Of a stretch of DNA of 64,000 nucleotides, positions 15,741 through 61,927 are shown piece after piece. The notes beneath the pieces were generated by a model. The model was not told the origin of the DNA. It worked only from the letters and a program-made list of their open reading frames with translations, and did not search any database. Source of the DNA: Tubulanus polymorphus (Eukaryota > Animalia > Nemertea); NCBI RefSeq assembly GCF_964204645.1, contig NC_134027.1, forward strand, positions 17,632,560 to 17,696,559. The letters are read 5' to 3'. Made by a program: the position numbers and the translations under genes. Each line of letters starts with the position of its first letter. Within the stretch, counting starts at the first letter, position 1.

Positions 15741-15986
15741 TATTATTATTATTATTATTATTTATTTATTTTCTGAAAATTATAGCAATTTATAACAAAT
15801 AATATACAATTTATAAATTATCATGTTTTTCCACAAATTCAGTATAAATTGACATAATTTATCAGAGGGGAAGATATAAAAAAGCATAGCTTGTAGGATA
15901 TACCACCCCAAAAAAAGTGTTACATTAGAAAAAGAAAAAATATTCATTCATACTTCCATGCACTCTCTCACACATACAAAAATGTA

Positions 15987-24854: not shown

Positions 24855-24888
24855 TTTTTCCTTTTCTTTTGCTCGAGGGACCAACTTA

Positions 24889-25223
<335 letters not shown>

Positions 25224-25286
25224 TGTTCCGCTATGTAGAGTATTGCGCTCATGGGACATCCCTGTCTTACGCCTCTTTCTAAAGTG

Positions 25287-33495: not shown

Positions 33496-34930
33496 ATTTT
33501 CATAGTCGTGTGTATTTTAGAATAAATATTTATTCTAAAATATTAATAATTTTAATTTCAAAAGCATATTGAAATTAAATCAAATGGTCGCTCCGCTCCC
33601 AATTGATTTAATTTCAATACACGATATAATAGATTTAATCATATAAATCTAATAATATTAATTATTTTGTTAATTATTACCAAGGAATACACACGACTAT
33701 GAAAATATATTGTAGTGTGGAATTAAAATTACTTTTTATATTTGTTTTTTTATTCACTCAACCTTTCAACCTCCGATATAGAACAACACAGTTACAATTA
33801 CTCTAATATTTTATATATGAAAATCATATTAATGAATAACATATAATGAAATCAATCTTAATAAAAAATTTATATAATAAATGGAGAGTAAACAAGTACA
33901 CAGTGAGAACAACAAATCATTCTTAGATAGAATTAAAGTTACTACAAATGCTAAATCTGTAGATTATAAATTTAAAAAGCTAACTGAGTTAACAATTCAT
34001 AAGAAATGTTTAATTACTAATATTGAAACAACACTAAAAAATATGGTAATAAATTAATAATTCATTTAGAATTTGAAGGATTGAAAGGTAATGAATATAA
34101 ATTCAGAACATATTTTACAGATAGATTTCATCGATTATCTAGTGAAGATATTGAAGAATTATATTCTGGTGATTTCTATTTCATATATAAAGGTAAGAAT
34201 AAAAAGGTCACCATGATATAGATTTCGAATAAAAAATATGTAAAATAAATTTTGATAAAACATTTATATTATAAATGTAACCAAATAAGAAGTACTACTG
34301 TCCAACATGTAAAATTAATACAGATAAATCTCAAAAAAGCAAGACATAATAAAACTAAATCTCACTTAGAAAATAAATTGAAATTAGGATATAAAGATGA
34401 TATATTTGAAACTAAATTAGAAGAATTGGTGAATGATAAAGAACTATATAAATGTGATACATGTAATCAATCATTCAGTAACAAAAGATAAACAACATTT
34501 AAAATCTAAATATCATATTAGAAATATTGATAATGATATTTTAGGTGTAAATAAGTTTGATAAAGATAATAATAATAAACAAAAGATAATAAGAAACATG
34601 AAAAATAAATTGAACAATAAAAGACCATATATGGAAGATGTTAGAATTTATATTAATTCATTAGATGATAAAAAAGATATAGAGATAACTGAAGCATTTA
34701 AAAATGATATTGATCCAGCAGCTATTGAATTTAAATTTCACAAAGGTAAGACGTTTGAAGAAATAAAAAACATTTAGAAAATATGAATGATATAATGAAA
34801 ATAATTACAGACGTAGAATACCCAAAAATTAGTATATCTGTTAAAGTAAGATTTTTAAAATCTGAAGATAAACCAATTTTATGATATTAACTCCCATTCG
34901 CAACGCATTATTTCTGCTCAGCATATAGAT
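33496..34930 (+). mobile_element. Decayed Maverick terminus: branched hairpin, promoter, MESKQ-gene homolog (33881-34232) and pPolB N-terminus (~34275-34930)
   Basis: MESKQVHSE...VDYKFKKLTELTIHKK; KARHNKTKSHLENKLKL, PYMEDVR, PAAIEFKFHKGKT match the pPolB at 57606-61631; many frameshifts. Confidence 0.9.
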
Positions 34931-44227: not shown

Positions 44228-44688
44228 AGTAATAGGGGTAATAGGCTTTCAGATCAAAGGTCGAACGGTCGAGCTCGTAAAAAATGAAAAACATAAAAAT
44301 AATTACAATTTCTACTTGAATTACTCGTGAAACTCATAAAAATGAAAAATGAATTCTCACACGCTCGAATTTATTTTTCATTTTATGAGTTTCACTCCTA
44401 ATTCAAGTAGAAATTGTAATTATTTTTATGTTTTTTCATTTTTACTCACCCGCCCGTTCAACCTTTAACCCGAAAGCCTATTACCCCTATTACTCTGAAA
44501 ATATTCATATATATGAATAACATTTAAATCATTGAACTTCTAAAATCAATTTTAATAAAAAATATAGTATTAAAATGGAAGCAAATAAGTACTACTGCCC
44601 AACATGTAATATCGATATAGATAAATCCCAAAAAGCAAGACACAATAAAACTAGAACACATTTAGAGAATAAATTGAAACTAGAATAT
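44228..44688 (+). repeat. Left terminal inverted repeat, including the terminal palindrome 44228-44494
   Basis: Reverse complement of ~61518-61927, extending through the first 38 codons of pPolB. Confidence 0.93.
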
Positions 44689-44826
44689 TTACAGTTATAT
44701 TCAGAACAGTTAACAAAGGGAAAGAAATTTATTGAATTATGGAATAATGATCCAAATAATGAACAATACGTTGAGGAATTTGATATCAAGGAATCGAAAC
44801 AACTTATCAAAAGCAGCGAGGAATGA
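44575..44826 (+). CDS. Chimeric 83-aa ORF: pPolB N-terminal zinc finger fused to a copy of the HNH C-terminus
   Basis: First 38 aa identical to pPolB; the next ~30 aa match the end of 45199-45711. Confidence 0.55.
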   Translation: MEANKYYCPTCNIDIDKSQKARHNKTRTHLENKLKLEYLQLYSEQLTKGKKFIELWNNDPNNEQYVEEFDIKESKQLIKSSEE

Positions 44827-44904
44827 AAAAGGATGACGTTGGTCGAAGAAATGGAAGAGGATTCTAAAATTATTAACCAATTTTAATAAAAATATGTATA
44901 ATAA

Positions 44905-45711
44905 ATGGAGCCGGAACAATCACAAGCTATAAATATAAACAATAATGGTGTAATAAATATATATCAGAAGACATGTTATAAGTGTTAAATAAATAAGCCA
45001 TTTACAGAATTTAATAAACATAAAAAAACTAAAGATGGTAAAAGTTGTTATTGCAAAACTTGTAATAAACTATATAATAAACAATATCGAGCAAATAATC
45101 CAGAAAAATATAAAGAAAAAGATAAACAATGGAGAGAAAATAATCCAGAAAAGTGGAAAGTTTATAATAAACAATGGAGAGAAAATCACCCAGAATATAT
45201 GAGAGAATGGAGAGAAAATCACCCAGAATATATGAGGGAATGGAGGGAAAATAATAGAGAGAATATAAACAATTATCAAAATGAAAAATATGAAACAGAT
45301 CTAAATTTTAAAATGAAAAAATGTTTGATAAATAGATTAACACAATTATTCAGTAAAGACAGTCACTCATACACACTATCTAATTTACTAGATTGTTCGG
45401 ATGAATTCTTCAAATCATGGATAATATTTCAATTCGATGATAAAATGAATATAAATAATTATGGTAATTATTTTCATATTGATCATGTGTTGCCTATTTC
45501 TAAATTTGACATGAATGATGAATATGATAAAAAGTTAATTTGGAATTGGAAGAATTTAAGACCTTTAGAAAAGAAAGAAAATAAAATAAAATTTAATAAA
45601 CTAGATTTACAGTTATATTTAGAACAGTTAACAAAGGCAAAGAAATTTATTGATCAATGGAATAATAATCCAAATAATGAACAATACGTTGAGTCTTTAA
45701 TGAGTGGTTAA
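44905..45711 (+). pseudogene. NCLDV-type HNH endonuclease with N-terminal CxxC pair and WRENxPE repeats; one in-frame stop near 44986
   Basis: TAAATG start at 44905 is in frame with 45199; KTCYKC...CYCKTC; NYGNYFHIDHVLP.S.FD...WKNLRPL...EN..K. Confidence 0.8.
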
Positions 45712-45958
45712 AGAATAATAGATTTTAAATAAAATATAATAAAAATTACATACCTTCAACTATCTATTATTTCTATTTTAATTTTTAATATTTTCTTTTC
45801 AAAAAGAATACTTTATATTTTGAATAGATTCAAATAGAAATTCTTTAAATTCAAATAGCTAGTATCAGTAGTCAATACTAGAGTTCTTTAACTTTTACTA
45901 TCTAGTATCATTTGAAGAATACTTATAATACTATTCTTATTAAATTTCTCTAATATAA

Positions 45959-46561
45959 ATGTCAAAGAAATCGAGTAAGAATAATATTGATATTGAAAAG
46001 ACATTAGATGATTTAGGTATTAGTGATAATAAAGATACAGTTGTTTCTAATTCTATTCAAGTTAATAACAATATAGATTATGAATACTATTTATATTGTA
46101 AGCACCATATAGAACTATTGATTGCCGGTGGAAAAACTAATGAGTTTTTAAATAGAATCATTACTTTTCAAGAATTAGATGCTATGAAACCCGATAAAGT
46201 AATAAAATATTTTAAGATTTATGAAGAAGCTCGATTAGCTAGAATAAATGATTCTATTTCAGATGGTATTGTCAAATGTTATTCAAAATTATGTAACCAG
46301 TTAATACCAATTGATGATGAAAATAAATTATATAATGATTTGAAAAATGACTATTTAGTTATGACTGAATTACAAAAATGGGTTGGATATGCTTCATTTC
46401 AATTAGGATCGGTTATGACATTGATTTCTACTGGAGTTATAACATTTTCGAATATCAAACCTATGGAATATAAATCAGGTAAGAACGAAACAGATGTACT
46501 ACAACCAAACGTCGAAACAGAAAATGAATCAGAACAAAAATTAACTAAAATAAATGAGTGA
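45959..46561 (+). CDS. Conserved viral hypothetical protein with a C-terminal hydrophobic segment
   Basis: Intact ORF; homolog at 849-1448. Confidence 0.8.
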   Translation: MSKKSSKNNIDIEKTLDDLGISDNKDTVVSNSIQVNNNIDYEYYLYCKHHIELLIAGGKTNEFLNRIITFQELDAMKPDKVIKYFKIYEEARLARINDSISDGIVKCYSKLCNQLIPIDDENKLYNDLKNDYLVMTELQKWVGYASFQLGSVMTLISTGVITFSNIKPMEYKSGKNETDVLQPNVETENESEQKLTKINE

Positions 46562-46949
46562 TGGCGTTGAGAAAAAGGCTAGATCCGAGAAACAAATTAA
46601 ATGGGCAAGAGAATTAGGTAAAAGATCATCAGAATTAAAAAAAGCTAAGAAAAAGAAATTAACTGATATAAATGAATCACAGACTTTATCTGATGGTGCC
46701 GTACAGCACCCACACGGTGGTATTGATTCAAATAATAATCCATCTAATTCTTCTAATGCTGGAAGTAATTATAAATTATATATTACAATTGGATTAGTAA
46801 CAGTTATTATATTATCCGGCGTAATATATAAATCAAAATTCAAATCTGATGATAAAGATGATTCCAATGACAATAAACCTATCATACCCGAAAATAAGTC
46901 AAATCATAAATCAAATGAAAATAAATCTAAAATATTATTAATGGATTAA
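46554..46949 (+). CDS. Basic single-TM viral hypothetical protein
   Basis: TM segment LYITIGLVTVIILSGVIY; homolog at 486-856. Confidence 0.75.
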   Translation: MSDGVEKKARSEKQIKWARELGKRSSELKKAKKKKLTDINESQTLSDGAVQHPHGGIDSNNNPSNSSNAGSNYKLYITIGLVTVIILSGVIYKSKFKSDDKDDSNDNKPIIPENKSNHKSNENKSKILLMD

Positions 46950-46952
46950 AAT

Positions 46953-48041
46953 ATGATGAAAAAAGAACAATATTTGAGAGATTTATATTATAACCCAGAA
47001 AGTGAAGTATCATATTCAAGTGTTTCGGAATTATGGGATAAAATTAAATCTGATAAAGAAAAAATAAAATATAGTGAATTAAAATCATGGTTACAAAATC
47101 AACCAACATATCAAATCCACAAGAAAATGGATAAAACTTATTTAACAAGAAAAGTAATGGTTTCATATATTGACCAACAATGGCAAGCTGATTTAATTGA
47201 TATGAAAAACTTAGAAGAACACAACAAAGGATATTTCTGGATACTGAATGTTATAGATATATTCAGTAGATACGCATGGAGTATCCCGATTAAAAATAAA
47301 ACTGGTATAGAAGTTACAAATTCTTTCAAATTAATATTTAAAGAAGCTATCCCAGATAAAATACAATTTGATGAAGGTAAAGAATTTTATAACAAACATT
47401 TCAAAAAACTATTATCTGATAACGATGTAGAATATTTTTCAACACATTCAGATAAAAAAGCATCTGTTATAGAAAGATTTAATAGAACATTGAAAACTAG
47501 AATGTGGAAATATTTCACCGCTAATGAAACATATAAATATATCGATGTGTTAGATGATTTAGTTAAAGGTTATAATAATTCTAAACATAGTTCTATAAAC
47601 ATGAAACCTATACAAGCTAGAAAAGAAGAAAATTCAGAAATAGTTTGGAATAATTTATATGGTGCGTTTGTTACACATGATTTTGGAGAACCTAAATTTA
47701 AAATAGGACAACATGTTAGAATTTCTAAATATAGAAAAACATTTTATAAAGGTTATACCCCTAATTTTACAGAAGAAATATTTAAAATTAAAAAGATAAT
47801 ATTAACTAAACCATTTGTTTATAAATTAGAAGATTTAAAAGATGAAGAAATATTAGGTTATTTCTATGAACAAGAATTATCATTAGTACCAAATCCAGAT
47901 GAAATAGAATACAAAATAGAAAAAGTATTGAAAACAAAAACTCTTAAAGGAAAAAAGTATTCTCTGGTGAAATATAAAGGATATGATGATAAATTTAATG
48001 AATGGATTTTATCTAGTAAAATTAAAAGAATAAATGAATAA
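46953..48041 (+). CDS. Retroviral-type (rve) DDE integrase with C-terminal chromodomain
   Basis: WQADLIDM, IDIFSRYAW, QFDEGKEF, KASVIERFNRTLK; chromo-like YKIEKVLK...LVKYKGYDDKFNEWI. Confidence 0.95.
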   Translation: MMKKEQYLRDLYYNPESEVSYSSVSELWDKIKSDKEKIKYSELKSWLQNQPTYQIHKKMDKTYLTRKVMVSYIDQQWQADLIDMKNLEEHNKGYFWILNVIDIFSRYAWSIPIKNKTGIEVTNSFKLIFKEAIPDKIQFDEGKEFYNKHFKKLLSDNDVEYFSTHSDKKASVIERFNRTLKTRMWKYFTANETYKYIDVLDDLVKGYNNSKHSSINMKPIQARKEENSEIVWNNLYGAFVTHDFGEPKFKIGQHVRISKYRKTFYKGYTPNFTEEIFKIKKIILTKPFVYKLEDLKDEEILGYFYEQELSLVPNPDEIEYKIEKVLKTKTLKGKKYSLVKYKGYDDKFNEWILSSKIKRINE

Positions 48042-48645
48042 AGATTTATTTATATTTGAACCACATAATATGTTAATAACTGGAGTTACAAATTGTGGTA
48101 AAACACACTTCATATTATATTTATTAGAAACTATTTATAAAAATCATTTCGATAATATAATATTATTCTGCCCAACTTATGAAATGAATGAAACGTATAA
48201 TAGAGATATAGTTAAGATAAAAAAGTTTATTATATTAGACCCTAAAACAGTAAAAGATAATTTAGATATTTGTATTAAAATAGCATTAGATATTTATAAA
48301 GGATCTAATACATTATTTATTATCGATGATTGCGCAAATTTACATGATTCTAAAATTAGAGAAAGTGAGTTATGTTATTTAGCTTTCTCTGGTAGACATT
48401 TTGGGATAACAACATGGGTTTTAAATCAAAGATATAATTCAATTGTTAAAGACTTTAGGGAGAATATAAGATTTCTAGTTTTATTCTACAACAAAGATAG
48501 AAAATCTATGCAACAATCATTGGAAGAAAATCAAATTATACCTACTGAATTACATGATGAATATATGAATAAATTAAAAAATAATAAAGGTTCCAAATTA
48601 CTTATGAGATTACAATTTCCATATGAATATAAATTTATAAAATAA
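48034..48645 (+). CDS. A32/FtsK-like genome packaging ATPase
   Basis: Walker A GVTNCGKT, Walker B FIIDD, GRH..ITTW...Q motif. Confidence 0.9.
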   Translation: MNKDLFIFEPHNMLITGVTNCGKTHFILYLLETIYKNHFDNIILFCPTYEMNETYNRDIVKIKKFIILDPKTVKDNLDICIKIALDIYKGSNTLFIIDDCANLHDSKIRESELCYLAFSGRHFGITTWVLNQRYNSIVKDFRENIRFLVLFYNKDRKSMQQSLEENQIIPTELHDEYMNKLKNNKGSKLLMRLQFPYEYKFIK

Positions 48646-48699
48646 CTATTTGTATACCTATATATTAGATACCCTATTAGATATGTATTATATACCTCC

Positions 48700-49260
48700 C
48701 CTAATGTCTTTATTATCATTAGTAGGTTTAGTACTTTTAGTACATAAAGAATAAATCTTTATTTTATTAATACTTTAAAAATAAAATAGAACTACTAAAC
48801 TACTAAAGATAATAAAGACATAACAAACACCATAGATTTATCATTACTGAATCAAATATATATAATAAATATGTGAGATAAATAAATCTATGATATTTAT
48901 TACATCTATATGTGTTTTGTTATGTCTTTATTATCTTTAGTAGGTTTAGTACTTTTAGTACATAAAGAATAAATCTTTATTTAATTAGTACTTAGAAAAA
49001 TAAATATATAAATGATAAATCTATGATATATATAATAAATATGTGTGATAAATAGATTTAATTATTGAAACAGTAATATATAAAATCCATCAGATGAATA
49101 AATATAATTATTGAAACAGTGTTATATATATATTTATGTCTTTATTGTCTTTAGTACTTTAGTAGTTTAAAAAATAATTTTATTCACTACTAATAAAATA
49201 AAGATTTATTCTATATGTACTAAAAGTACTAAACTACTAAAGACAATAAAGACACAAAGG
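48700..49260. repeat. Direct and inverted AT-rich repeat array between the convergent gene blocks
   Basis: atgtcttta..tagtaggtttagtacttttagtacataaagaataaatctttatt at ~48703 and ~48922; inverted copies at ~48792-48825 and ~49195-49255. Confidence 0.8.
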
Positions 49261-49281
49261 GTATTATATTCATATTTTAAA

Positions 49282-50475
49282 TTACTTTTCTGATTCTAAT
49301 TCTGAAAACAATTTGCTCCATGCATCTCTTAATTCTTGCGATCTTCTTTCACCTAACAGTTTAAAATGATAACCATTACCATTCAAACCCTTAACCCAGA
49401 ATTCATAAGTTAAATAAATATATTGGTTTAATTTGTCTTCACTTATATTTTTATATTTATTTTTTGCTTCATTTCTTATTTTATTTATAACATCCTGTGA
49501 AAAATCTTCATAACTGTAGTATTGAATTATTTCATCAAAGTTATCACTTTTATTATCATAATTATCATTAGCAGCAACTTTTTTCAATTCTGTTAAAAAA
49601 TCTATATTTTTAAATTTTATGAAATAATGTATACTCCAATAATTATTTAGATAAATTTTTATAATCGTCCGACGAGTTTTTAGATCTGATAATACTTGTT
49701 TTGGATTATTTCTTACATAATCGATAAAAATTGATCTATATAATTTCCTATGATCATTATTTTCGATATCAAAAAATACACTTGGTACTCTATAAAGGAT
49801 ATTTAAATCAGCAGCTTTTATTGTATGTTCAAAAGAATTATCATGTTTAATTCTATCTTTAGGTAATACAACAACATTACACTTTTCACATATATTTCTT
49901 TCTATATTATCCAAATGTATCTGTGTTAATTTATGCTTTGAAAAATTACTACGACTTATATATTTATCACATTCTTCACAATATTTATCTTCTTTAACAT
50001 TATCATTATCAATTTCACTATCATTATTCAATTCATTTAAAATCTTATTCTTATTTTTCTTATGCTTGAGTGAATTAAGATGAGTTGCCCAATTCTTATA
50101 ACTTTTATACTGTTTACATACGTCACAATATTTTTCATTTGTCTTTTTTGATTCAATATCATATGTTGTAGAGGGTATATTATAAGATACATATCCTGTT
50201 ACATCTTCTATTTTATATTCAATATCATTCTTATCTTCTATTTTAGGTTCAATATCATCTTCTATTTTATATTCAATATCATTCTTATCTTCTATTTTAG
50301 TTTCATTCTTATCTTCTATTTTAGGTTCAATATTATCTTCTATTTTACTTATTCTATATTTGAATTGATTAAAGTAATCTCCAAAATACTTACTGTATTC
50401 ATCATAAGGTAATATATAATATATATCTGATATCATTTCACTTGGAGATTGTATTTCATATATTCCACCTTCCAT
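49282..50475 (-). CDS. Viral multi-zinc-finger (U1/matrin-like C2H2) protein with KIED repeats
   Basis: CDVC...HLNSLKH, CEEC...HKLTQIH, CEKC...HDNSFEH; tandem KIED(K/D) repeats. Confidence 0.8.
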   Translation of the reverse strand: MEGGIYEIQSPSEMISDIYYILPYDEYSKYFGDYFNQFKYRISKIEDNIEPKIEDKNETKIEDKNDIEYKIEDDIEPKIEDKNDIEYKIEDVTGYVSYNIPSTTYDIESKKTNEKYCDVCKQYKSYKNWATHLNSLKHKKNKNKILNELNNDSEIDNDNVKEDKYCEECDKYISRSNFSKHKLTQIHLDNIERNICEKCNVVVLPKDRIKHDNSFEHTIKAADLNILYRVPSVFFDIENNDHRKLYRSIFIDYVRNNPKQVLSDLKTRRTIIKIYLNNYWSIHYFIKFKNIDFLTELKKVAANDNYDNKSDNFDEIIQYYSYEDFSQDVINKIRNEAKNKYKNISEDKLNQYIYLTYEFWVKGLNGNGYHFKLLGERRSQELRDAWSKLFSELESEK

Positions 50476-50507
50476 TTAATATAAGATTTTTTATTAAAGT
50501 TAAAATT

Positions 50508-51754
50508 TTAACACATAACACTATCTAATTGTGAATTTACAATATTTAATTGCGCGTCAGATATAATATAAATGTGCATTTTAAAATTTTTGATTCCCTT
50601 TTTCTTTGTCATGAATAATTGTATTCCATCTTTAGTGTTCTGTAGTTTTTTTCCAGAACCATGTAATAAGTTATCCTCTGTTGTTCTAAAATCTAACCAT
50701 AATGCATATTTATTACCGGTATAATAATCAATTTGATTAATGTTACAATCTTCAGATGATTTTATTTTTTCATTCATAAAATGTTTTTTAATTTCTACCC
50801 ATTGATCAATCATTCTCATTCCTTGACAAAATATTTTATTTGCTATACCTTCGATAGTTATTTCTACTTTTGTTATTTCAGGATTATAATAATTATCAAC
50901 ATTTATTGCGCCATTAGTATACGTTCCAATAGTAAAAATATTAATATACCTTTAATAGATCTTCTAGGAAAGTTAATATTCTCATTAATTATTTCATCAT
51001 TTGCATTAATAGTTACAGTTTTAAATTTATCAATATAATCATATAATAATGAAAACCCTTGATTGTATTGAGTTTGAATTATACTTGAAATATTTTCATT
51101 AGTTACTGTATCATATTCTAAACATATATTCGATAATTTATAACCCATATCTTTAACAACGCTAGATAATACAATTTCATTTACAGGAGCAAATGTTATC
51201 TCAAATATAATATCTTCTTGAATTGCGTATTTATATAAAGGTGCATTATTATTTATCAATTCAAAGTCTAATGGAATTTTATATTTGCTTCCATATATAC
51301 TTTTTATCAATTTATCTACATCATTTGTTAATATTGCGCTATTAGCTTCTGATCTTAATTTATTTTGGTTTTCTGATTGAATTCCTTGAAATATCATATT
51401 ATTTCTATTTTCTTTAGTTAACCATAAATCTTTATAATGTGAAAATAAATTATAATCATCTAATGAGAAAACTGTTTCTGGACCAATCTTTATTGTTAAC
51501 TTTTTAATCAAATATCTTCCAACATTATCAACGACATAATTATTATTATTACCGATTACTTTTATATCAGCTGATAAATAAATACTGTTTGGAACATAAA
51601 AAGTATTTTGTGTTAATCGAGGGATTCTAACGTATAAAGTTTCATCGGGATTAATATTTGAAGGGTTATGAGTAATTATATGATGTGATCTTTCTGCTTT
51701 AATAGCATTAGATATTCTATGATTCTTCGAAGGATTTATATAACTCCCACTCAT
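50508..51754 (-). pseudogene. Putative double jelly-roll major capsid protein, single frameshift near 50935
   Basis: ORFs 50903-51754 and 50508-50819 join into ~415 aa; beta-rich, with I..LTIKIG, IPLDF, I.FEITFA, LSNICLEYD and ALWLDF patterns typical of Polinton-like MCPs (fold not computed). Confidence 0.72.
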
Positions 51755-51825
51755 GTATTTAACAAAAAAATTAATTATTTATTTTTTGATATCATGGTTT
51801 ACTTGATATTTTTTGATATCATGGT

Positions 51826-53250
51826 TTACTTGATATTTTTTGATATCATATTTACTAACCCAAAAATAATAGCACTTACAACTGTAATTAAAAATAAAAT
51901 AATATGTTCAGCAGCAAAGTTAATAATGTTTCCTGCAGATTTCAATATAAAACCAACAATTGAAGCAATAACTCCTGGCAATGCTGCAGCAGATTTTTTA
52001 GATAGTTCCCATAAATATTTTGCTAATTTCTTTAAACCATCTTTAACTTTATCTTGTATAGAATTATTGCCTGGAGGTTTATCTGGTTTATTTGGAGTAG
52101 GAGTAGATTTCAAAGCATTTGATATTGCTAAACCAATTGTTGTAAATAACATAGTTACAGCTGTTAGAATTGAAAGAATTGTTATTCCTTCTAATTTAAA
52201 TAATAACTTTATTCTGTCTTTTAATGATATTTCAGAATTTGGTTTAATCAACAAATCTTTAAAAATAACTTTTAATCTATTTATATTATAATCATATGAT
52301 TTTAATAATAATTTAATTTCTTCTTTTTGTAATTCTATGTTATATTCTAAATCATCAATTTCTTTTTCTAAATATGCATTTCTTTTTTTAAATTCAATTT
52401 CTTCAATAACTTTATTATCTCTATCTAATTTTAATTGTTCTATTTCTTTATTTTTATCAGTTCTATCTTTTTCTAAAAATCTAATTTTAATATATCTTTT
52501 ACTTTTTTCATGCGCAATTTTATCAGCTGATTCTTGCATACCTTTAATTTCTCTACGTGCTTGTTCAGGAAATGCTTCTAATTCATCATCAGTTAAATCA
52601 AATAATCCTTTTTCTAGTAAAGATTGTATTCGATTTATTCCAGTTTCAGGACCGGGCGTATCTAAAACACTAATCATATCTTCTTCAAATGAATTCATTG
52701 TATCCAGTAAGTTATCTAAACGTTTTCCTAATTGTAATTGACTTGAATCATTATCAATTTGTTGAGTTTCTCTTCTCGATGTTTCGGGTGTTGAAGATCT
52801 TAATTTATCTAATCGATTTGCAAAATCTTCATCAGTTTCTGGATCAACATCAGTAGGATTTGGATTTGGATTTTTAAATGGTGAATATTTGTTTATATCA
52901 ATATTAGGAATTGGTTCTTCTTCATTTATTCTATCGATTGCATTCCATATAATTCTAAGAAATTCTCTACCACCTTTTGAACCTTCAATTGTAGATCTTG
53001 CTCGCATTCCAGGTTCAAAAATATTTTCTTGACCCATTCTAGATAATTGAATTGATACGGTATTCCTATTTAATTCAAGATTATAATACCATGCATCATT
53101 TTTAAATTCTAAATTATTTGTGAAATATGGGTCATCTTTAAAAATTTGTTCTACAACACCTTCAGTATCAATTTCATCTATTACAACTTTTGGTAATAGT
53201 TCGTTAACAATTGTATCTGTTACTCTAGATTTCATTTTATATAATTCCAT
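51826..53250 (-). CDS. Viral coiled-coil protein with C-terminal hydrophobic (TM) segments
   Basis: Long charged heptad region followed by GITILSILTAVTMLFTTIGLAI and HIILFLITVVSAIIFGLV. Confidence 0.8.
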   Translation of the reverse strand: MELYKMKSRVTDTIVNELLPKVVIDEIDTEGVVEQIFKDDPYFTNNLEFKNDAWYYNLELNRNTVSIQLSRMGQENIFEPGMRARSTIEGSKGGREFLRIIWNAIDRINEEEPIPNIDINKYSPFKNPNPNPTDVDPETDEDFANRLDKLRSSTPETSRRETQQIDNDSSQLQLGKRLDNLLDTMNSFEEDMISVLDTPGPETGINRIQSLLEKGLFDLTDDELEAFPEQARREIKGMQESADKIAHEKSKRYIKIRFLEKDRTDKNKEIEQLKLDRDNKVIEEIEFKKRNAYLEKEIDDLEYNIELQKEEIKLLLKSYDYNINRLKVIFKDLLIKPNSEISLKDRIKLLFKLEGITILSILTAVTMLFTTIGLAISNALKSTPTPNKPDKPPGNNSIQDKVKDGLKKLAKYLWELSKKSAAALPGVIASIVGFILKSAGNIINFAAEHIILFLITVVSAIIFGLVNMISKNIK

Positions 53251-53253
53251 AGG

Positions 53254-53553
53254 TTAATCAGGATATTTTTCTTGTTGTTCTACTAATAGTTTCATAAATT
53301 CTTTTCTTTCTGTTCTAGTTGAAATTCTACCACTTTCAGGAGCTTTTAAATATTTATATAATTTTTCACGTAATTCGGAATCATCATCATCATCATCATC
53401 ATAATCATCATCTTCACCTAAATTAGTATTATATGCTGATTCATCATCATTATCAATATTAGTTTCTGCATCATTATAATCATTATCAATATATCCTTCA
53501 TTATTATTTCCCATTTCTCCCATTTCATAATCTTCTACACCTTCTACATCCAT
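53254..53553 (-). CDS. Small acidic viral protein
   Basis: Poly-Asp tract; T-tract/TAAATG start. Confidence 0.65.
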   Translation of the reverse strand: MDVEGVEDYEMGEMGNNNEGYIDNDYNDAETNIDNDDESAYNTNLGEDDDYDDDDDDDSELREKLYKYLKAPESGRISTRTERKEFMKLLVEQQEKYPD

Positions 53554-53569
53554 TTACATAATAAAAAAA

Positions 53570-54955
53570 TTAAAATTTAAAATATAATATTCCTCCGATT
53601 ACAATTCCTATACAAGTTATAACTAATTTAGTATTTTCATGTGATTTATTATCATCATTTAGTTTAATTATATCATGTTGAATTTTATCAGTTTTTATAT
53701 CTTCTGATGTATTGTAATCTTTTATTTTAGAATCATTAACCAATTTAATATTCTTAGTTTTAGTTTCAGTTGATTGAATGTGTTTTTTATTTTTTTCACC
53801 TTCCATTAATTTTGGAGCAGTAATAATCTTTTTATTTATATCATTTAACCCAAATGAATTTTTTATTGTCGCAGTTTTAATTAGATTATTATAACCAATT
53901 ATATTTCCCATCTTCAATACTAAATCATTAGAAATAATTAATAGATTAGGGCCTATACAATAATTAAGTCTTACATGAGATTTATCTAAATAATTTTGAT
54001 ATCTTATAATGTTTTCTGGAATCGATCTATTTTTATCATTATGAATTGAATCTTCAAATAAAACTTTAAATTGTTTTTGTGTATCGAATGATGTATTCAA
54101 ATTTCCAATTATCGGTGATCTTGTTTCAACTTGCGCACCTAAAATACAAATTAAATAAGTTCTAAAAGATTGATTTATTCTTTCTATACCTGATTTAGTA
54201 AAATCTTCACTATTTTCTAAAATAAAATAAACCCAACCATTATTGTTTTCTTGTTTTAAATTATCATAAAATTTTGGTAATTTATTGAAATTTAATGTTT
54301 CTAAATCCTTTGTTTCTATTTTACCATAACCTAATTTATTATTATAGATATTATAAAAACTATTAGCACTATGGGAAGTGCACAATATTCTGCAATCTTT
54401 CTAGGGCATGGAAGTGATCTTATTGTTCCAATTTTTGTTCTAAAATCAATTATTTATATCTATATTAAATTCATTACAAATCTTATAAAACTTAGATAAA
54501 TTAATATTATTATCTAATTCTTTGAAATACCTAGATCCTGGTAAAGCGCACTCTAATTCATTTAATATTATTCTGATTTGAAAGTATGTATGAAATCTAA
54601 ATAAACTTTGAATTAATTTATATTTAGAATTATTCAAATGATCATTCCAACTAATTCCACATCCTGTTGTTGCACAATAAACAGCAAAATTTAATTGATT
54701 CTGCCAATACTTCATATTAGATTTTAATAACCATTGTTTTTCATCTTTCAATTTTTTAAAATTAATTAAATATACATGAAATATATTTTCCATCTTTGCA
54801 TTAAAATTATTAGTTTCAGTAACATAAATATATAAATCAATTAATGAATCTAAAACTTCATTTCTATATGTAATATCTTTATTAAAATCTATTGCTGGAA
54901 TATTATATTTAATTGATTTATTATATTGGAAAGCTTTTGGAAAACTATCTACCAT
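53570..54955 (-). pseudogene. Viral hypothetical protein with C-terminal TM, probably one gene split by frameshifts (54446-54955 + 53570-54385)
   Basis: Only the upstream ORF has a TAAATG start; an alternative frame reads through the 60-bp gap (DFRTKIG); C-terminal LVITCIGIVIGGILYF. Confidence 0.6.
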
Positions 54956-54971
54956 TTATATAATTAAAAAA

Positions 54972-55406
54972 TTAATAATTTATTAATTCTTTTAATAATT
55001 TATCTTGTTCTTCAACTGTTATATGACCATTTAAACTTATTATATAATCTAGTGTATTTTTTAATTTATTAATTTCTTTTATATTAGTTTTAATTTTTTC
55101 TTTATTACTTTTTATATTTAATTTTGAACTTATACCGGTTAAAACACTTGAACTTAATCCTAACACACCAATTGATATAGCTAAAGGTGTTAATGGGCTG
55201 AATATTGCTAGAAATGTTATTACAGAACTAATTGTAACCGAACCACTTATAATCAAATAATATATAATTTTACTTTTTAAATATTTTTTCTTTTTTATCT
55301 TTAAGTCACTTTCAAATTCTAATATTTGTTTTTCTAAATATGTTTTTAATTTAGTTTTATTTATATCATGAGGAATAATATCAATACTATCAACTTTATC
55401 TTCCAT
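54972..55406 (-). CDS. Two-TM viral protein
   Basis: Hydrophobic hairpin IIYYLIISGSVTISSVITFLAIF / LAISIGVLGLSSSVLTGI. Confidence 0.75.
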   Translation of the reverse strand: MEDKVDSIDIIPHDINKTKLKTYLEKQILEFESDLKIKKKKYLKSKIIYYLIISGSVTISSVITFLAIFSPLTPLAISIGVLGLSSSVLTGISSKLNIKSNKEKIKTNIKEINKLKNTLDYIISLNGHITVEEQDKLLKELINY

Positions 55407-55425
55407 TTATTTAGAATAAAAATTA

Positions 55426-55848
55426 CTAATTAGTAAACTTATAAGCAACAAATATAACAATAACTGTTCCACCTAAAATCCAAATTATTTCATATTTCTG
55501 TTGTTCTTTACTTGGGGTATAATAATCTGATAATTTAGGTTTGTATAGATGTAATTTTTCTTTATTTGTTACTGCGTTATATAAACTCATTGCATCATCA
55601 ACTGATTGAAAATCTCTATGTGAAATCTTCTGATTATATAATTCTTTGTTAATATAATCCATATAGTTTTGTCTCTTTTCTCTATATTCTTCTGCAGCTT
55701 TATTGTATTTCTCTAACGCTAAGTTATGTCTTCTTTGTTCTCCTAATGAACTATTTTTATCAATATGCTTAAATAAATAACCACCACCAGTAAATGCTAA
55801 AGCGTTAACAATTGCCGATCCTATAATAGTTATAATTGCAGAAGCCAT
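55426..55848 (-). CDS. Viral protein with N- and C-terminal hydrophobic segments
   Basis: AIITIIGSAIVNALAFTGGGYLF...IIWILGGTVIVIFVAY. Confidence 0.8.
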   Translation of the reverse strand: MASAIITIIGSAIVNALAFTGGGYLFKHIDKNSSLGEQRRHNLALEKYNKAAEEYREKRQNYMDYINKELYNQKISHRDFQSVDDAMSLYNAVTNKEKLHLYKPKLSDYYTPSKEQQKYEIIWILGGTVIVIFVAYKFTN

Positions 55849-55873
55849 TTATTTAGCAAAAAAAATTATGCAT

Positions 55874-56095
55874 TTATATGGGAGGAATATATTTTTGTTT
55901 TTCCAAATAATCAATAGTTAAATTAGATAAAGTAACTGCTAATGTTAACTTTAAAATATCATTTATATCAAATCTATCAACATTAACACTTCCCATTTTG
56001 AATACTTTTTTTAATACCATTGAATAACCAACAGTTCCAACTGATAGTAATGCGCCATTATATAATCCAGTTATTATCCACTTATTATCACTCAT
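55874..56095 (-). CDS. Small hydrophobic viral protein
   Basis: 73-aa ORF with T-tract/TAAATG start, tightly packed in the gene array. Confidence 0.7.
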   Translation of the reverse strand: MSDNKWIITGLYNGALLSVGTVGYSMVLKKVFKMGSVNVDRFDINDILKLTLAVTLSNLTIDYLEKQKYIPPI

Positions 56096-56443
56096 TTATT
56101 TATCAAAAAAATTACTATCTTCAAAATATTTAGTTAACTTATTTATGATTAATTCGACATTTATTTCATTACTACTTTTATGATTATCATATATTTCAAT
56201 TATTATTTTTTTAATATCATCGATGATAAAATCTTCATCTAATTCATAAAATCTTAAAGACTCAGTAATCTTTTCTACATTAAAAGTTTCTTTATCTATT
56301 GTTGTTTCATACTCAAATGTTGTTTCATTAGAAAATGCAATATTTTTGATATGTGTTATTACATCATTAATGTTAAATTTCATTTCTTTCTCACGTTTAA
56401 AATCAAATCCAAAACATATACTCGGTCCAACAGTTATATTCAT
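56096..56443 (-). CDS. Viral hypothetical protein
   Basis: Intact ORF with T-tract/TAAATG start. Confidence 0.65.
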   Translation of the reverse strand: MNITVGPSICFGFDFKREKEMKFNINDVITHIKNIAFSNETTFEYETTIDKETFNVEKITESLRFYELDEDFIIDDIKKIIIEIYDNHKSSNEINVELIINKLTKYFEDSNFFDK

Positions 56444-56459
56444 TTATATAGTGAAAAAA

Positions 56460-57218
56460 TTACTCTTTACATCTTATAACTAATTCATAAATTACAGGAA
56501 AGTTATTCAAATCAATTAAATATCCATTTTGATTTCTAATTTCTAATTTAAAATTATTAAATTTAGGAATGCATGGTTTAAAATCACATTCTGTTAAATT
56601 ATAATTTATTTGAGTTCCAAATTGTTTAACATTTTTTAGCGGTAAAATATTTAGTATACTAGAATTACAAATTGTTTCTTTAGTTGCTTCGAAAGTTTTT
56701 GTAGGCTCGATTAAATTGCAATAGATATAAAAGTGTGTAAAAGGTATTATATTTGAAATACCTTCTACGTTTACTGTAACAACATCTGGTTCAATTCCTA
56801 GCAATTTAGCTATAGGTTTTTTTACCATAAATGCATGTTGACTTTCATCAAATACCTTTATTTTAATTCTATTTGAGCTATCACTTTTTATAAATCTTAT
56901 TAAAAATTTATCATCTTTTCTAATTTTCAACCGTGCTCTACGATTAATTTCTTGAGATAATGTTTCTAAATTATATAATCCTGGTCTTAGAAATAGATGA
57001 AACCATTTATTTATATTTCTAATATGAATTAAAAAAGTATTATGTTCAATAGTTTTATTCGATATATTATAAAAAGAATTACATAAACTTATATTTACTA
57101 ATTTTAAATCTACACAATTCTTGAATTCTCTATCTAATTGTACTAATAAATTATGAGATTTATAATTTGTAAGTTTTCTAGAATCAACAAATATTCTGTA
57201 TTCTTTTAATTCTACCAT
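56460..57218 (-). CDS. Putative minor capsid (penton) protein
   Basis: NSFYNIS, PGLYN, FYIYCNLI, C-terminal FKLEIRNQNGYLIDLNNFPVIYELVI pattern typical of Polinton pentons; 252 aa. Confidence 0.72.
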   Translation of the reverse strand: MVELKEYRIFVDSRKLTNYKSHNLLVQLDREFKNCVDLKLVNISLCNSFYNISNKTIEHNTFLIHIRNINKWFHLFLRPGLYNLETLSQEINRRARLKIRKDDKFLIRFIKSDSSNRIKIKVFDESQHAFMVKKPIAKLLGIEPDVVTVNVEGISNIIPFTHFYIYCNLIEPTKTFEATKETICNSSILNILPLKNVKQFGTQINYNLTECDFKPCIPKFNNFKLEIRNQNGYLIDLNNFPVIYELVIRCKE

Positions 57219-57235
57219 TTATTTTACATATTTTC

Positions 57236-57577
57236 TTATTCGAAATCTATTTCATGGTGCCCTTTTTCATTCTTACCTTTGTATACGAAATAGAAATCTC
57301 CAGAACATAATTCTTCTAGATCTTCACTTGATAATCTATGAAATCTATCTGGTAAATAAGTTCTGAATTTATATTTATTTCCTTTTAATCCTTCATATTC
57401 TAAATGGATTACTAATTTATCTCCATATTTATTAGTAATTGTTTCAATGTTAGTAATTAAATATTTCTTATGGATTGTTAACTCAGTTAGTTTTTTAAAT
57501 TTATAATCTACAGATTTGACGCTTGAAGTATCTTTAATTCTATCTAAGAATTCACTGTGTACTTGTTTACTTTCCAT
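57236..57577 (-). CDS. Small conserved viral protein next to pPolB (possibly OB-fold ssDNA-binding; inference)
   Basis: Homologs beside pPolB in two other copies (29050-29337, 33881-34232). Confidence 0.7.
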   Translation of the reverse strand: MESKQVHSEFLDRIKDTSSVKSVDYKFKKLTELTIHKKYLITNIETITNKYGDKLVIHLEYEGLKGNKYKFRTYLPDRFHRLSSEDLEELCSGDFYFVYKGKNEKGHHEIDFE

Positions 57578-57605
57578 TTATTATACAAATTTTTATTGAA
57601 ATTGA

Positions 57606-60600
57606 TTAACACGCTAAAATCCTTTTCATAATCTCATTTTCTTTTGTTTCTTCTCTTTTGAATTTTATATATTCATCTAAATTGCAACCATAGGCGACTG
57701 TGTGGATTCCATCATCTAAAATATATCTTTTATCATCAAATGGGTTTAGACTTATCTTCTCTATCTCTTCAATATACATTTCATGATCTTCAGATCTTAA
57801 ACATTTCATCTTATGTTTTCTAACTTCTTCTTTGAATATACAATTTATGTAATCTTTGAAATGAATATTCTTTTCAACAACGCTTTTGGTAATTCCTTTC
57901 AATTTCTTTGATTCATGTTCTTTAGTTTTATAACTATACATTTTAGATCTAATACCAATGAACTCTATCATTTCTTCACCACCTAATTCATCTTTGAATT
58001 TACCGGGAACTTTTTTATTATCATTGCTAAACAATTCATGATTTTTAGGATAGTTACTGAAATCAAAATGATGTTTTAATGTTTTTAAATCATCAGTTAT
58101 GTTATCAGTTTTTATCTTTAATATGTAACTGTCAGTATCAAAGTATAGAATTTCTATGTGTTTTTCTCCAAAATGAGGTTGTAATACGTTATAGTAAAAT
58201 TTATACATTAATAACTTTGATAATTCTAAAACTGCAGCTCCAACATAAATTGGTTTATTAAATTTCATTGAAGTTCTTCTCATTTTAACTGCTGCTAAAT
58301 TTTCATCAAATATTCTGTTATCTATAAACTTAGGATATGATTGTAAATGCCTTATCCTTTTACCATTACTAACTAACTCAATATCATTTCTATTTCTTAT
58401 GTTTTCACAAGTCTTACCATAGAATGCATTATTCATTAGTTTGAAGAAATCTTTCTCGAAATCAGTTTTAGCTTCAGTTCTCTGTGTAGTATTAAAATCT
58501 ATATATTTTTCTAACCATTTAGATTGACTGAATGAAATATATCTATGTACTTTTTTTAATATCATTCCTTGTCTCAAATAAAACTTCAACATTCTATAAT
58601 GCACAACGTAATTATATTTATCTTCCTGAGTTACCATTAACTTTTCAGTATGAATATGATTATCGGGTTTAATTCTTTTTTGATAATTTGATAATTCTTC
58701 ATGAGTTACAGTTTTATGTTCGGGACAGTAAGCTAGATTTCTAGATTTGAATTTAATATTTTCAGGGTATTCTAAATCTACAACGAAGAAGTAACCAGTA
58801 TCTGAATCATCTGCAATATCTAGGATTCTTTTCTTCCAATCAAATTTATCAATTTGTAAAACTTCAGTTATTTCAAACATCCCATAAGGTTGTGGTTCCA
58901 TCATTGCCCAACCATAAAGATTATTTGCATCTATGTATAATAATTTATATCCAGGATTATCATTTACATTGAAATATCTATCACCCAATACACCTGAAAC
59001 ACCTCCTCTTATAGATTTTTCAAATAATAGTAATTGATCTATATTTGTTAACAAATCCATTTTTATATTTGTAAATTTTAATCCACAATCCCATGTTAAT
59101 CCCGGTGATGAATAACAATGACAAGGATCAATATTGAAATATTTTAGGTTTACATCTCTAAACCTTTCGAATATATCGGTTAATAATAATACATCTGATT
59201 TTAAATATAAATCTACTAATTGCCCATGATTTTCTATTTTGAAATGATTCCAAATATTCAATGTTCTATTATATACTTTATCTTTAACATATTCATTTTT
59301 TAATTCATCATAAAATTGTTCTTTCAATAATTCAGTTATATTGAAATCATTATGTGATTTATAAAATGAATATGGAATTGCACCTTTATATCTCATTAAT
59401 TGAAAATCATCATTATTTGGGTAGTGTTGCTTTAATATTCTTAATTCATCATCAACTAATGATTTTGATAAGTTATCTAATGAACTATTTAAAAATCTAT
59501 ATGAATCTATAAATCTGAGGCAACCAAATTGGAATGATATATAATTCTCAGATGTTTTAGCTAACATTCTAAATTTATAAGTTGGTATTTTATCTTTTGA
59601 TCTATTTGAATTTAATATTTCTATTTCATTATTAATTTCTTCTATTTTATGACATAACTGTTTGATAAATAAATGTGCATCATATCCAGATAGATTATGA
59701 AATATAACTGGTACAAAATTAATTTTCTTAGCTTGTAAGTTACAATTCTCATGTGCAGCGCCTCTAAACTTTCCATTCAAATAATCATGGTCTCTTACTT
59801 TTTTATCTTTATAATTAAATATCTTTTCACAATAATAACATTTACCTGAAAACACAAATTCTTCTTTATCTTCTTCTGTCATTATAATTTCTATATTTGT
59901 ATTCAATAATTTACTAAATCTTAATTCATATTCAATTAATAAGTCACAAAAATGATTGATAACATTTTCATTTCTATAATCATAATATTCACTTTCAATT
60001 AGTTCTGGATAATCAGATTTAATATATAACCCGAAAGCTGCAGCTGATTGATGAATCTTTTTAATAGTATTTGTTTTTGGTGGTTCATCTGAAAAATCAT
60101 TTTCATTAAAATTTAATTTCTTTCTTTTATAATATATTTCTTTTCTATCTTGATCTGTTAATTCTTTATTTAATGATTCAAAATCTCCATATATTACAAA
60201 TGGTACTTTATTTTTGTAATCATATTTTTTGAATTCTAATATTTTATCTTTTTCATTTGGTAAAACTAATTTACAATAATCATGATTTTCACATAATTGT
60301 TTATGATTTAATAATGTACTTTCATTACTGAATTTATGTAAACATTTTCTACATAGATATATTTTATTATGGTGATCACTTTCTGTTCTAAAAAATAAAT
60401 CTATTTGTTTAATCCACATATAATGATTCTCATAATATAGTATATCTATAACATCATTTGAATCATAATCTTTTGATAGGTATAAAGGTTCTAATGTATA
60501 AGGTTTAATATTATTTCCTTTTGTATTTGGTAATTTGATTAAATCAAATACATTTATCTTTATATTATTATCTCTTTCTATTTTTGGGATGTTTTTAATT

Positions 60601-61631
60601 CTAACAGGATACTTATCTATCTTATAATTATTTTCAAATGGTTTATAATGAGTTAATCTACAAATATTATAAGTTGCAGGATGTAAACAACTTATTATAG
60701 TCCATAGTAAACATTTATCATCTTCATTTTGTACGTTTATAACAGCATTAGTTTTAAATGGTAGTTTGATATAACTTGATGCTTCAATATCAGGTTCTTT
60801 ATAATATGATAAATTATTTTCATCTATTGGTTTTGATTTAGTTAACTTATTATATTTTGTGTTATAAACATGTAAAGTCATAAATATTATTTCATCAAAT
60901 ATTAAACCAGATCCTTCAAAATATTTCTCTTCTATTTTAGTTTTTATTTCATTATAACATTTATTTAATTTATCTTCTATATGTTGTTTAGATATAATAT
61001 GTTGTGAATGAGAATTTATATTATATATTGGTTTATCTTCAGATTTTATAAACTTTACTTTAACTGATATACTAATTTTAGGATATTCAACATCTGTAAT
61101 TATTTTTATTATTTCTTTTATATTTTCTAAATGTTTTTTATTTTCTTCTATTGTTTTTCCTTTATGAAATTTAAACTCGATAGCTGCTGGACCAATATCA
61201 CTTTTAAATGCTTCGGTTATCTCTATATCTTTTTTATTATCTAATGAATTAATATAATTTCTTACATCTTCCATGTATGGTCTTTTATTGTTTAATTTAT
61301 TTTTTATTCTTTTAATTGCGCTTTGTTTCTTATCGTTATCATTATCAAAATAATCTTCACCTAAAATATCATTATTCTTATTTCTAATATGACTTTTAGA
61401 TTTTAAATGTTCATTATAATATCTTTTATCACTGAATGATTGATTACATGTATCACATTTGTATGTTTCTTTTTCATCCTTTAATTCTTCTAATTTAGTT
61501 TCTAATATATCATCTTTATATTCTAGTTTCAATTTATTCTCTAAATGTGTTCTAGTTTTATTGTGTCTTGCTTTTTGGGATTTATCTATATCGATATTAC
61601 ATGTTGGGCAGTAGTACTTATTTGCTTCCAT
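57606..61631 (-). CDS. Protein-primed family B DNA polymerase with N-terminal zinc fingers, vOTU-like region and an EndoVII-like insertion
   Basis: ExoI YGDFES, ExoII FHNLSGYDAH, ExoIII YLKSDV, Pol motifs YIDANNLYGWAM, KLMNNAFYGK, YFDTDS, KMY, KGI; CYYC...RDHDY...HENCN. Confidence 0.97.
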   Translation of the reverse strand: MEANKYYCPTCNIDIDKSQKARHNKTRTHLENKLKLEYKDDILETKLEELKDEKETYKCDTCNQSFSDKRYYNEHLKSKSHIRNKNNDILGEDYFDNDNDKKQSAIKRIKNKLNNKRPYMEDVRNYINSLDNKKDIEITEAFKSDIGPAAIEFKFHKGKTIEENKKHLENIKEIIKIITDVEYPKISISVKVKFIKSEDKPIYNINSHSQHIISKQHIEDKLNKCYNEIKTKIEEKYFEGSGLIFDEIIFMTLHVYNTKYNKLTKSKPIDENNLSYYKEPDIEASSYIKLPFKTNAVINVQNEDDKCLLWTIISCLHPATYNICRLTHYKPFENNYKIDKYPVRIKNIPKIERDNNIKINVFDLIKLPNTKGNNIKPYTLEPLYLSKDYDSNDVIDILYYENHYMWIKQIDLFFRTESDHHNKIYLCRKCLHKFSNESTLLNHKQLCENHDYCKLVLPNEKDKILEFKKYDYKNKVPFVIYGDFESLNKELTDQDRKEIYYKRKKLNFNENDFSDEPPKTNTIKKIHQSAAAFGLYIKSDYPELIESEYYDYRNENVINHFCDLLIEYELRFSKLLNTNIEIIMTEEDKEEFVFSGKCYYCEKIFNYKDKKVRDHDYLNGKFRGAAHENCNLQAKKINFVPVIFHNLSGYDAHLFIKQLCHKIEEINNEIEILNSNRSKDKIPTYKFRMLAKTSENYISFQFGCLRFIDSYRFLNSSLDNLSKSLVDDELRILKQHYPNNDDFQLMRYKGAIPYSFYKSHNDFNITELLKEQFYDELKNEYVKDKVYNRTLNIWNHFKIENHGQLVDLYLKSDVLLLTDIFERFRDVNLKYFNIDPCHCYSSPGLTWDCGLKFTNIKMDLLTNIDQLLLFEKSIRGGVSGVLGDRYFNVNDNPGYKLLYIDANNLYGWAMMEPQPYGMFEITEVLQIDKFDWKKRILDIADDSDTGYFFVVDLEYPENIKFKSRNLAYCPEHKTVTHEELSNYQKRIKPDNHIHTEKLMVTQEDKYNYVVHYRMLKFYLRQGMILKKVHRYISFSQSKWLEKYIDFNTTQRTEAKTDFEKDFFKLMNNAFYGKTCENIRNRNDIELVSNGKRIRHLQSYPKFIDNRIFDENLAAVKMRRTSMKFNKPIYVGAAVLELSKLLMYKFYYNVLQPHFGEKHIEILYFDTDSYILKIKTDNITDDLKTLKHHFDFSNYPKNHELFSNDNKKVPGKFKDELGGEEMIEFIGIRSKMYSYKTKEHESKKLKGITKSVVEKNIHFKDYINCIFKEEVRKHKMKCLRSEDHEMYIEEIEKISLNPFDDKRYILDDGIHTVAYGCNLDEYIKFKREETKENEIMKRILAC

Positions 61632-61927
61632 TTTAATACTATATTTTTTATTAAAATTGATTTTAGAAGTTCAATGATTTAAATGTTATTCATATATATG
61701 AATATTTTCAGAGTAATAGGGGTAATAGGCTTTCAAGCTAAAGGTTGAACGGGCGGGTGAGTAAAAATGAAAAAACATAAAAATAATTACAATTTCTACT
61801 TGAATTAGGAGTGAAACTCATAAAATGAAAAATAAATTCGAGCGTGTGAGAATTTATTTTTCATTTTTATGAGTTTCACGAGTAATTCAAGTAGAAATTG
61901 TAATTATTTTTATGTTTTTCATTTTTT
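61518..61927 (-). repeat. Right terminal inverted repeat, with palindrome truncated by ~51 bp
   Basis: Matches the reverse complement of 44279-44688. Confidence 0.92.

Follow-up and report, generated by a model that had tools for sequence, protein, structure and literature searches.

Neither the mode of transcription of Polintons integrated in animal genomes nor their autonomy from large DNA viruses is settled; according to a 2026 preprint, Maverick-Polinton virions have never been seen. The question is raised here by an element of 17.7 kb and 77% AT that spans positions 44228 to about 61927 of a 64,000-nucleotide stretch (hereafter the window) of the genome of the nemertean Tubulanus polymorphus (contig NC_134027.1, positions 17,632,560 to 17,696,559, forward strand). 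Most genes of this element start at the hexamer TAAATG, and this TAAATG code is a real, inherited trait of one capsid clade of related elements. Given its likeness to poxvirus promoters, we consider it slightly better than an even bet that the element is helper-dependent and that its genes are transcribed by the pox-type RNA polymerase of a co-infecting pox-like virus. A pox promoter code that holds throughout a lineage names the class of helper and makes the question of dependence testable.

Start-proximal signals in the element

An earlier note on this stretch had described most open reading frames (ORFs) of the element as starting at TAAATG, behind one of two classes of upstream box, and all starts that it named are where it placed them. 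TAAATG covers the start of 13 of 16 genes, namely those at 57577, 57218, 56443, 56095, 55848, 55406, 54955, 53553, 50475, 48034, 46554, 45959 and 44905. The remaining three are the putative DNA polymerase pPolB (61631), which starts at TAAAATG, the major capsid protein (MCP; 51754), with TAAATACATG, and the integrase (46953), with TAAAATATG; TAAA(A)T lies at the ATG or at most 3 nt away from it in 16/16 starts. This set leaves out a duplicate of the pPolB start in a terminal inverted repeat (TIR; 44575) and the downstream fragments of broken genes (45199, 50819, 53250 and 53911). TAAATG is found at only 38 of the 691 other ATGs (p=1e-13) and, when the comparison is restricted to AT-matched ATGs with at least 85% AT upstream, at 8 of 90 (p=6e-9). 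The motif thus stands above its AT-matched background.

The upstream boxes are likewise tied to starts. Among the 13 TAAATG starts, ten are boxed (four by an A box, six by a T box) and three are not, compared with 2/38 of the TAAATGs that are not at starts. The strict form of class A, TT.AATAAAAA-N6-11-TAAA(A)TG, occurs five times in the 64 kb, always at a start and always with a 9-nt spacer: at pPolB (61631) and its TIR duplicate (44575), a gene here called MESKQ (57577), an HNH-like gene (44905) and a zinc-finger gene (50475). Apart from the TIR duplicate, these are genes to which the earlier note had assigned class A, together with a variant before the penton that is also present. Its further assignment at 33881, in an older copy of the element, stands in part, the box being there as a variant with a 10-nt spacer. 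Class B, a T-tract before the start, was found at all six genes for which it had been listed (56443, 56095, 55848, 55406, 54955 and 53553) and at the MCP. No AG separates T-tract and ATG in any of these seven class B starts (0/7). The genes are tightly packed, with intergenic gaps of 0-28 nt.

Inheritance across one capsid clade

Relatives of the element were taken as the best 80 of 123 metagenomic loci fetched with the capsid alignment. In a quick MCP tree of 55 rows of at least 330 aa, built without reference Polinton MCPs and with the window represented by its first 274 residues, the window falls within a 15-row clade with an SH-aLRT support of 98, which L070 and L071 join at 84. Starts of ORFs of at least 100 aa were then counted in 18 clade loci and 60 outside loci, with L062 and L073 set aside (TAAATG at 1/1 and 2/3 starts). 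TAAATG is present at 65 of 75 clade starts versus 5 of 297 outside. AT content does not explain this trait, because the GC-richer clade members (mean GC 0.38) have TAAATG at 21/23 starts compared with 1/50 in AT-rich outsiders (mean GC 0.33). The form of the signal is strict: with near-duplicates removed, the exact TAA-ATG is found at 61/69 starts and TAAA followed by ATG at none (0/69). Scans of IMG/VR with the MCP and pPolB returned no relatives.

Four other sources of the motif were considered and rejected. Chance in AT-rich DNA is ruled out by the AT-matched comparison in the window and by the GC-richer members. Coupling of a TAA stop to the ATG of the next gene, which the note had recognized as a possible source, is ruled out as well: it accounts for 2 of the 65 clade TAAATG starts and, in the window, for that at 56095 only, while TAG or TGA takes the place of TAA in 1 of 75 clade starts. 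A Kozak context is ruled out by the base at -3, which is T in 66/75 clade starts and a purine in 211/297 outside starts. Finally, a splice acceptor is ruled out by the lack of AG after the T-tract.

Lineages outside the clade carry other start-proximal motifs. Eight sister loci (L015, L018-L022, L075 and L079) have no TAAATG and show TATA[G/C] within 20 nt of the ATG in 20/37 starts versus 4.7%; this motif resembles the TATA-type late initiator of African swine fever virus (ASFV) as described in PMC7163114. In L020, TTTTCTG is also frequent farther upstream of starts. AT-rich outgroups (L023, L025-L027, L029, L038, L047, L050 and L072) have T followed by three to seven A and TG in 19/35 starts versus 2.1% in the background, and this TA(A)n-ATG may be a third code near the start or else an A-rich context for translation.

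Likeness to poxvirus promoters and the candidate polymerase

The earlier note had compared the two box classes with vaccinia promoters, and both initiator and spacing do match. In vaccinia late promoters, TAAAT(G) overlaps the ATG and the 10th base upstream is a conserved T; in intermediate promoters, a T follows an AT-rich tract that lies 15-19 nt before TAAA (PMC11980589; see also PMC5294985); TAAATG is retained in salmon gill poxvirus (PMC4542343). Class B corresponds to the late type, with TAAAT(G) over the ATG and a T about 10 nt upstream: over 80 promoters of the clade and the window, the frequency of T is 0.88 at -9 and 0.70 at -10 from the hexamer, the peak thus lying at -9. Class A, an A-rich tract followed by T, fits the intermediate type roughly, with a core at about -17 to -10; it also resembles the A-rich early cores of vaccinia, so its stage is uncertain. 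Unlike in vaccinia, the signal is carried here by an integrated 17.7-kb element with no detected RNA polymerase.

Both box types also occur in a viral contig. IMG/VR was screened for both patterns, class A and class B, yielding 136 loci with at least five ORFs; for class B, 121 of about 410 matches were listed and 79 analyzed. TAAATG reached at least 50% of starts in two loci, L085 (8/12) and L217 (3/6), the latter phage-like by inspection, and the class B matches listed held no TAAATG-rich virus other than L217. L085 encodes a pox F10 kinase, L3, A32 and an NAD ligase, and among the ten closest relatives of its L3 the two named clusters (besides "hypothetical protein") are both entomopoxvirus L3L. 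In the full contig, L162, TAAATG is found at 11/16 starts, five of A type and five of T type, the corresponding numbers among 32 non-start hexamers being 0 and 3; this one contig constitutes the poxvirus control. L162 (17.6 kb) appears as a divergent poxvirus fragment whose L3 shares 49% identity with one unnamed protein and about 30% with entomopoxvirus L3L, and an L3 scan of IMG/VR retrieved only this same contig. TAAATG is absent from the text of the Loki's Castle supplements, in which logos would be images.

Since signal and spacing are those of poxviruses, the element likely borrows the transcription machinery of a pox-like virus not so far found in this host. Each gene has its own short signal fused to the ATG, with either a T box (peaking 9-10 nt upstream) or an A box (about 10-17 nt upstream), and a pox-type polymerase, rather than that of the host, would read the integrated element. 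Transcription would start within the AAA, and slippage there would yield a 5' poly(A) leader in which the poor T at -3 is replaced by A; each mRNA would carry a single gene, and genes with an A box would be expressed before those with a T box. With more reserve, the element may be silent until the helper infects, whereupon its own polymerase would replicate it and its own capsid would package it, much as in mavirus with CroV. The reading requires some way, which it does not supply, for integrated copies in the nucleus to come into contact with a cytoplasmic polymerase, and an antiviral benefit to the host is speculative.

An unlikely alternative is that the nuclear RNA polymerase II of the host is redirected by a factor of the element, for example the class A zinc-finger protein, in an early-to-late switch that needs no helper. 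The zinc-finger gene does retain class A in relatives, the tens of copies of the family (see below) require germ-line expression of integrase and polymerase, and a VLTF3-like ORF lies in a sister lineage (L020:6543-7052, L021:4427-4936 and L022:5082-5579; Pfam Pox_VLTF3 E=6e-4, below cutoff). The variety of motifs among lineages also keeps open an element-driven promoter system. However, among 19 ORFs of the window and 18 of the clade Pfam gave no match to TBP, TFIIB or VLTF, and neither the window nor the TAAATG clade holds a VLTF3-like frame. Nor was an RNA polymerase found in the element, in agreement with the earlier note, which had credited the element with none. Moreover, only 9-17 nt separate the boxes from the ATG, which is too near for a TATA box that is expected about 24-30 nt before the start site, the coding strands of the element carry 58 AATAAA in 13.7 kb without depletion, and the T at -3 departs from the purine of outside starts.

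Similarly unlikely is the same mechanism with another helper, either a non-pox nucleocytoplasmic large DNA virus (NCLDV) with a TAAAT initiator or a cytoplasmic linear element like pGKL2 that encodes its own RNA polymerase. Promoters of the yeast pGKL elements have a TAAAN initiator and slippage leaders (PMC6211774), basal egovirus-like lineages are reported from marine sediments (10.1101/2024.03.23.586382), and helpers may vary, as sister lineages have different start-proximal motifs such as TATA[G/C]. The exact TAAATG at the ATG with T at -9/-10 is nevertheless the layout of vaccinia late promoters, salmon gill poxvirus retains TAAATG, and the clearest TAAATG-rich viral contig is that of a poxvirus. 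A translation-level signal, whether an in-frame stop guard, termination-reinitiation on a polycistronic mRNA or a splice or trans-splice acceptor, is very improbable. It would suit the gene gaps of 0-28 nt, the TAA in frame with the ATG and the direct coupling in one window pair and two clade pairs, but not the rarity of coupling and of TAG or TGA, the lack of AG after the T-tract in 7/7 cases, the presence of the motif before opposite-strand genes and first genes beside the TIR, or the fixed T at -9, which it does not lead one to expect. Chance in 77% AT DNA, for which the 51 TAAATG of the whole element might speak, is already refuted by the AT-matched ATGs and the GC-richer clade members.

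Several observations weigh against transcription by a pox-type polymerase. The motif is short, rich in A and T and not exclusive to poxviruses, since TAAAN initiators are described in yeast linear elements too (PMC6211774); what separates the clade from outsiders is in part a matter of degree, because AT-rich outgroups have the related TA(A)n-ATG. A codon-shuffle analysis of host poly(A) and splice signals and of T5NT did not separate clade from outsiders (observed/expected AATAAA, 165/170.7 for the clade and 75/82.5 for AT-rich outsiders; both groups were depleted in T5NT). One L085 start matches by construction, because the class A pattern itself retrieved L085, the looser A and T features applied to L162 were set post hoc, and the IMG/VR screen covers only part of the NCLDV orders. 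No gene exchange with poxviruses was found. In addition, box classes are not cleanly split by gene function. The claim of the earlier note that replication genes are read before structural genes therefore fares poorly: the penton, a structural gene, has class A in the window and in L001, the integrase and the ATPase of the window have neither box, and the MESKQ gene, whose product may be like a single-stranded DNA-binding protein (SSB), has class A in the window and class B in L001. Class B is kept at the capsid gene in 8/15 relatives, but strict class A turned up only within an AT-rich subclade. Given these exceptions, two box types exist and a replication-first order is only loosely supported. 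Overall, the code is well supported, and the mechanism remains unproven, with no transcript end, helper genome or co-occurrence observed.

In its broadest form, which we advance tentatively and regard as doubtful in its entirety, the proposal would be that an entire lineage of Polinton-like viruses integrated in animals relies on poxvirus transcription in a two-step programme and serves as a heritable hyperparasite and antiviral defence set off by infection, that sister lineages are tied to other large viruses (as the ASFV-like TATA initiator might indicate), and that from each lineage's promoter code a helper virus yet to be discovered can be predicted.

Gene content, copies and relation to known systems

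The element is bounded by TIRs whose arms (44279-44688 and 61518-61927) are 410 nt long and 99% identical. The left TIR (44228-44688, forward strand) contains the duplicated class A promoter and 5' end of pPolB, and its end was placed at 44228 by 1300 loose read ends. The right TIR (61518-61927, reverse strand) lacks the outermost ~51 bp of the left end, and the target-site duplication is unreadable for this reason. Each TIR also holds an internal inverted repeat (44227-44495 and 61711-61927) with 122-nt arms of 85% identity, the terminal sequence recurring about 270 nt inward. Four sequencing runs, three of them contig sets and one a DNA run, point to a multi-copy family. In the DNA run, which comes from another sample, read depth is hundreds per base over most of the element versus 5-14 in the flanks, which indicates a family of tens of copies with at least 90% identity. 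The copy in the window is decayed, four genes being broken (the MCP, the HNH-like gene and those at 54955 and 53553). The window also holds three further pieces of this family, older and degraded (1-1503, 29716-31075 and 33721-34929; 69-88% identity); within the last, the copy at 33850-34929 (forward strand) retains the class A variant before its MESKQ homolog (33881). The region 14514-27597 (reverse strand) is presumably a BEL/Pao-like LTR retrotransposon with a nested LINE, as recognized from translations; repeats were detected at 13.5 kb and 24.9 kb. The LINE and BEL/Pao-like ORFs flanking the element accord with an animal host.

On the forward strand, a class A promoter (44882-44907) precedes the broken HNH-like gene (44882-45711). 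The name "HNH" given to it earlier is only partly borne out: the class A start is present, the ORF beginning at 44905 has 27 codons only, Pfam gave no match for the window gene and that of its relative L002 is weak (E=0.0055). A conserved family gene with 46 members and a TAAATG start (45959-46561) follows, then a gene for a small predicted membrane protein (46554-46949), the integrase with rve domain and chromodomain (46953-48041; Pfam rve E=5e-9, Chromo E=9e-5), which has neither A nor T box, and the A32 packaging ATPase (48034-48645; Pox_A32 E=8e-11). The TAAATG starts of the membrane protein and the ATPase lie within the coding ends of the preceding genes; both of these genes terminate in I-N-E-stop, because the TAAATG of the next gene sits inside their coding ends. 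An ATPase overlap of the same kind is present in L002.

The other genes are on the reverse strand. That of the zinc-finger protein (49282-50498), for which the database search gave no homolog, has class A also in L002, L003 and an aligned relative in L005. The double-jelly-roll MCP (50508-51773), two ORFs in the window copy, is preceded by a T-tract; TAAATG is its start in 15 clade relatives, and its predicted fold matches D13/PBCV-1 (E 2e-6). Next come a coiled-coil/membrane gene (51826-53572) and a conserved family gene of about 420 aa (53570-54974), both broken here and behind class B promoters at 53553 and 54955, respectively, and four small genes (54972-56462; starts at 55406, 55848, 56095 and 56443), each with class B, at gaps of 0-25 nt. 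Profiles of the MCP and of the 45959 and 54955 families gave nothing useful among PDB sequences. The predicted penton (56460-57240), a single jelly roll, has the class A variant, and L001 has exact class A; its low-confidence model (pLDDT 45) aligns 126 residues to a PBCV-1 capsid chain (Z 10.0, rmsd 3.7) and scores Z 6.2 against the mavirus penton. The product of MESKQ (57236-57600, class A) is possibly an SSB (phi29 SSB cluster at 0.85, a lead only), and a database search returned three close homologs, none of them named. The 1341-aa ORF at 57606-61655 (class A, TAAAATG start), which we take from motifs recognized by eye to be a family B DNA polymerase, presumably protein-primed, gave in Pfam an endonuclease VII-like insert and a zinc finger only, with no polymerase match at E<=0.01. 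In the close relative L001, a deoxynucleoside kinase (10340-10981, reverse strand; Pfam dNK E=2e-31) lies behind a class B promoter.

This gene content and the modelled folds suggest a Polinton with a capsid like that of Polinton-like viruses (PLVs), rather than a classic Maverick. The earlier name "Maverick" is upheld by the rve integrase, the A32 ATPase, the double-jelly-roll MCP, the penton (a low-confidence model) and the long TIRs; it is not upheld by the protease. No protease, including the adenovirus-like cysteine protease of classic Mavericks, was detected in 19 window, 18 clade or 29 outgroup ORFs, several ORFs being without assignment. Foldseek placed NCLDV and TVS1 capsids (E 1e-8) above those of MELD/adintovirus (E 2e-4), at 8-18% identity, and virophage capsids at ranks 32 and 50; with no protease detected and this low capsid rank, the element was not found to have the virophage-type MCP and cysteine protease of Lavidaviridae/Virophaviricetes. 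Mavirus has a polymerase and an rve integrase, and the element shares with the mavirus-like lifestyle helper-type promoters before most genes and no detected RNA polymerase of its own.

In the openly accessible literature, we found no report of a TAAATG or pox-type promoter code in Polintons, and the accessible literature naming both polinton and TAAATG concerns protist virophages and aphid small RNA. To our knowledge, the yeast pGKL elements have neither capsid nor integrase. Being linear and rich in AT, and having pox-related promoters with a TAAAN initiator, pGKL1 and pGKL2 are comparable to the present element, but their promoters depend on a UCS motif farther upstream and on a polymerase of the elements' own (PMC6211774). 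Barth et al. (2024; PMC11296320) described PLVs in entomopoxvirus occlusion bodies that were proposed to live in animals as hyperparasites of poxviruses, a close parallel by description only; these PLVs have a cysteine protease, and two of them are without an integrase. The main text of that paper contains none of the words "promoter", "TAAAT", "motif" and "transcription", and its supplement does not contain "promoter". Nematostella-type Polintons are alike, again by description, in being animal-integrated, in having polymerase and integrase and in a capsid unlike that of classic Mavericks/adintoviruses, and the accessible parts of the sources describe no promoter code for them (PMC11296320, 10.64898/2026.10.13.758929, 10.64898/2026.06.19.733378).

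The nearest functional models come from protists. Helper-type promoters are known in mavirus and in the PLV Gezel-14T (10.1101/2022.07.28.501842, 10.1101/2025.10.09.676808), and clades of endogenous mavirus-like elements (EMALEs) differ in promoter motif and helper compatibility (10.1101/2025.10.09.676808), as motifs vary between lineages here. Like mavirus and EMALEs with CroV, or Gezel-14T with PgV, the element appears as a small jelly-roll virus with helper-type promoters before single genes. Those systems differ in having protist hosts, mimivirus-related helpers and experimental proof, whereas the present one has an animal host and a pox-type motif, and no protease was detected in it. That virophages and PLVs carry helper promoters, and that PLVs accompany entomopoxviruses, was thus known already; the pox-type code on a Polinton lineage appears to be new. 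If it has the meaning proposed here, an unknown pox-like virus is to be expected in the host group, and the mavirus model would extend from protists to animals.

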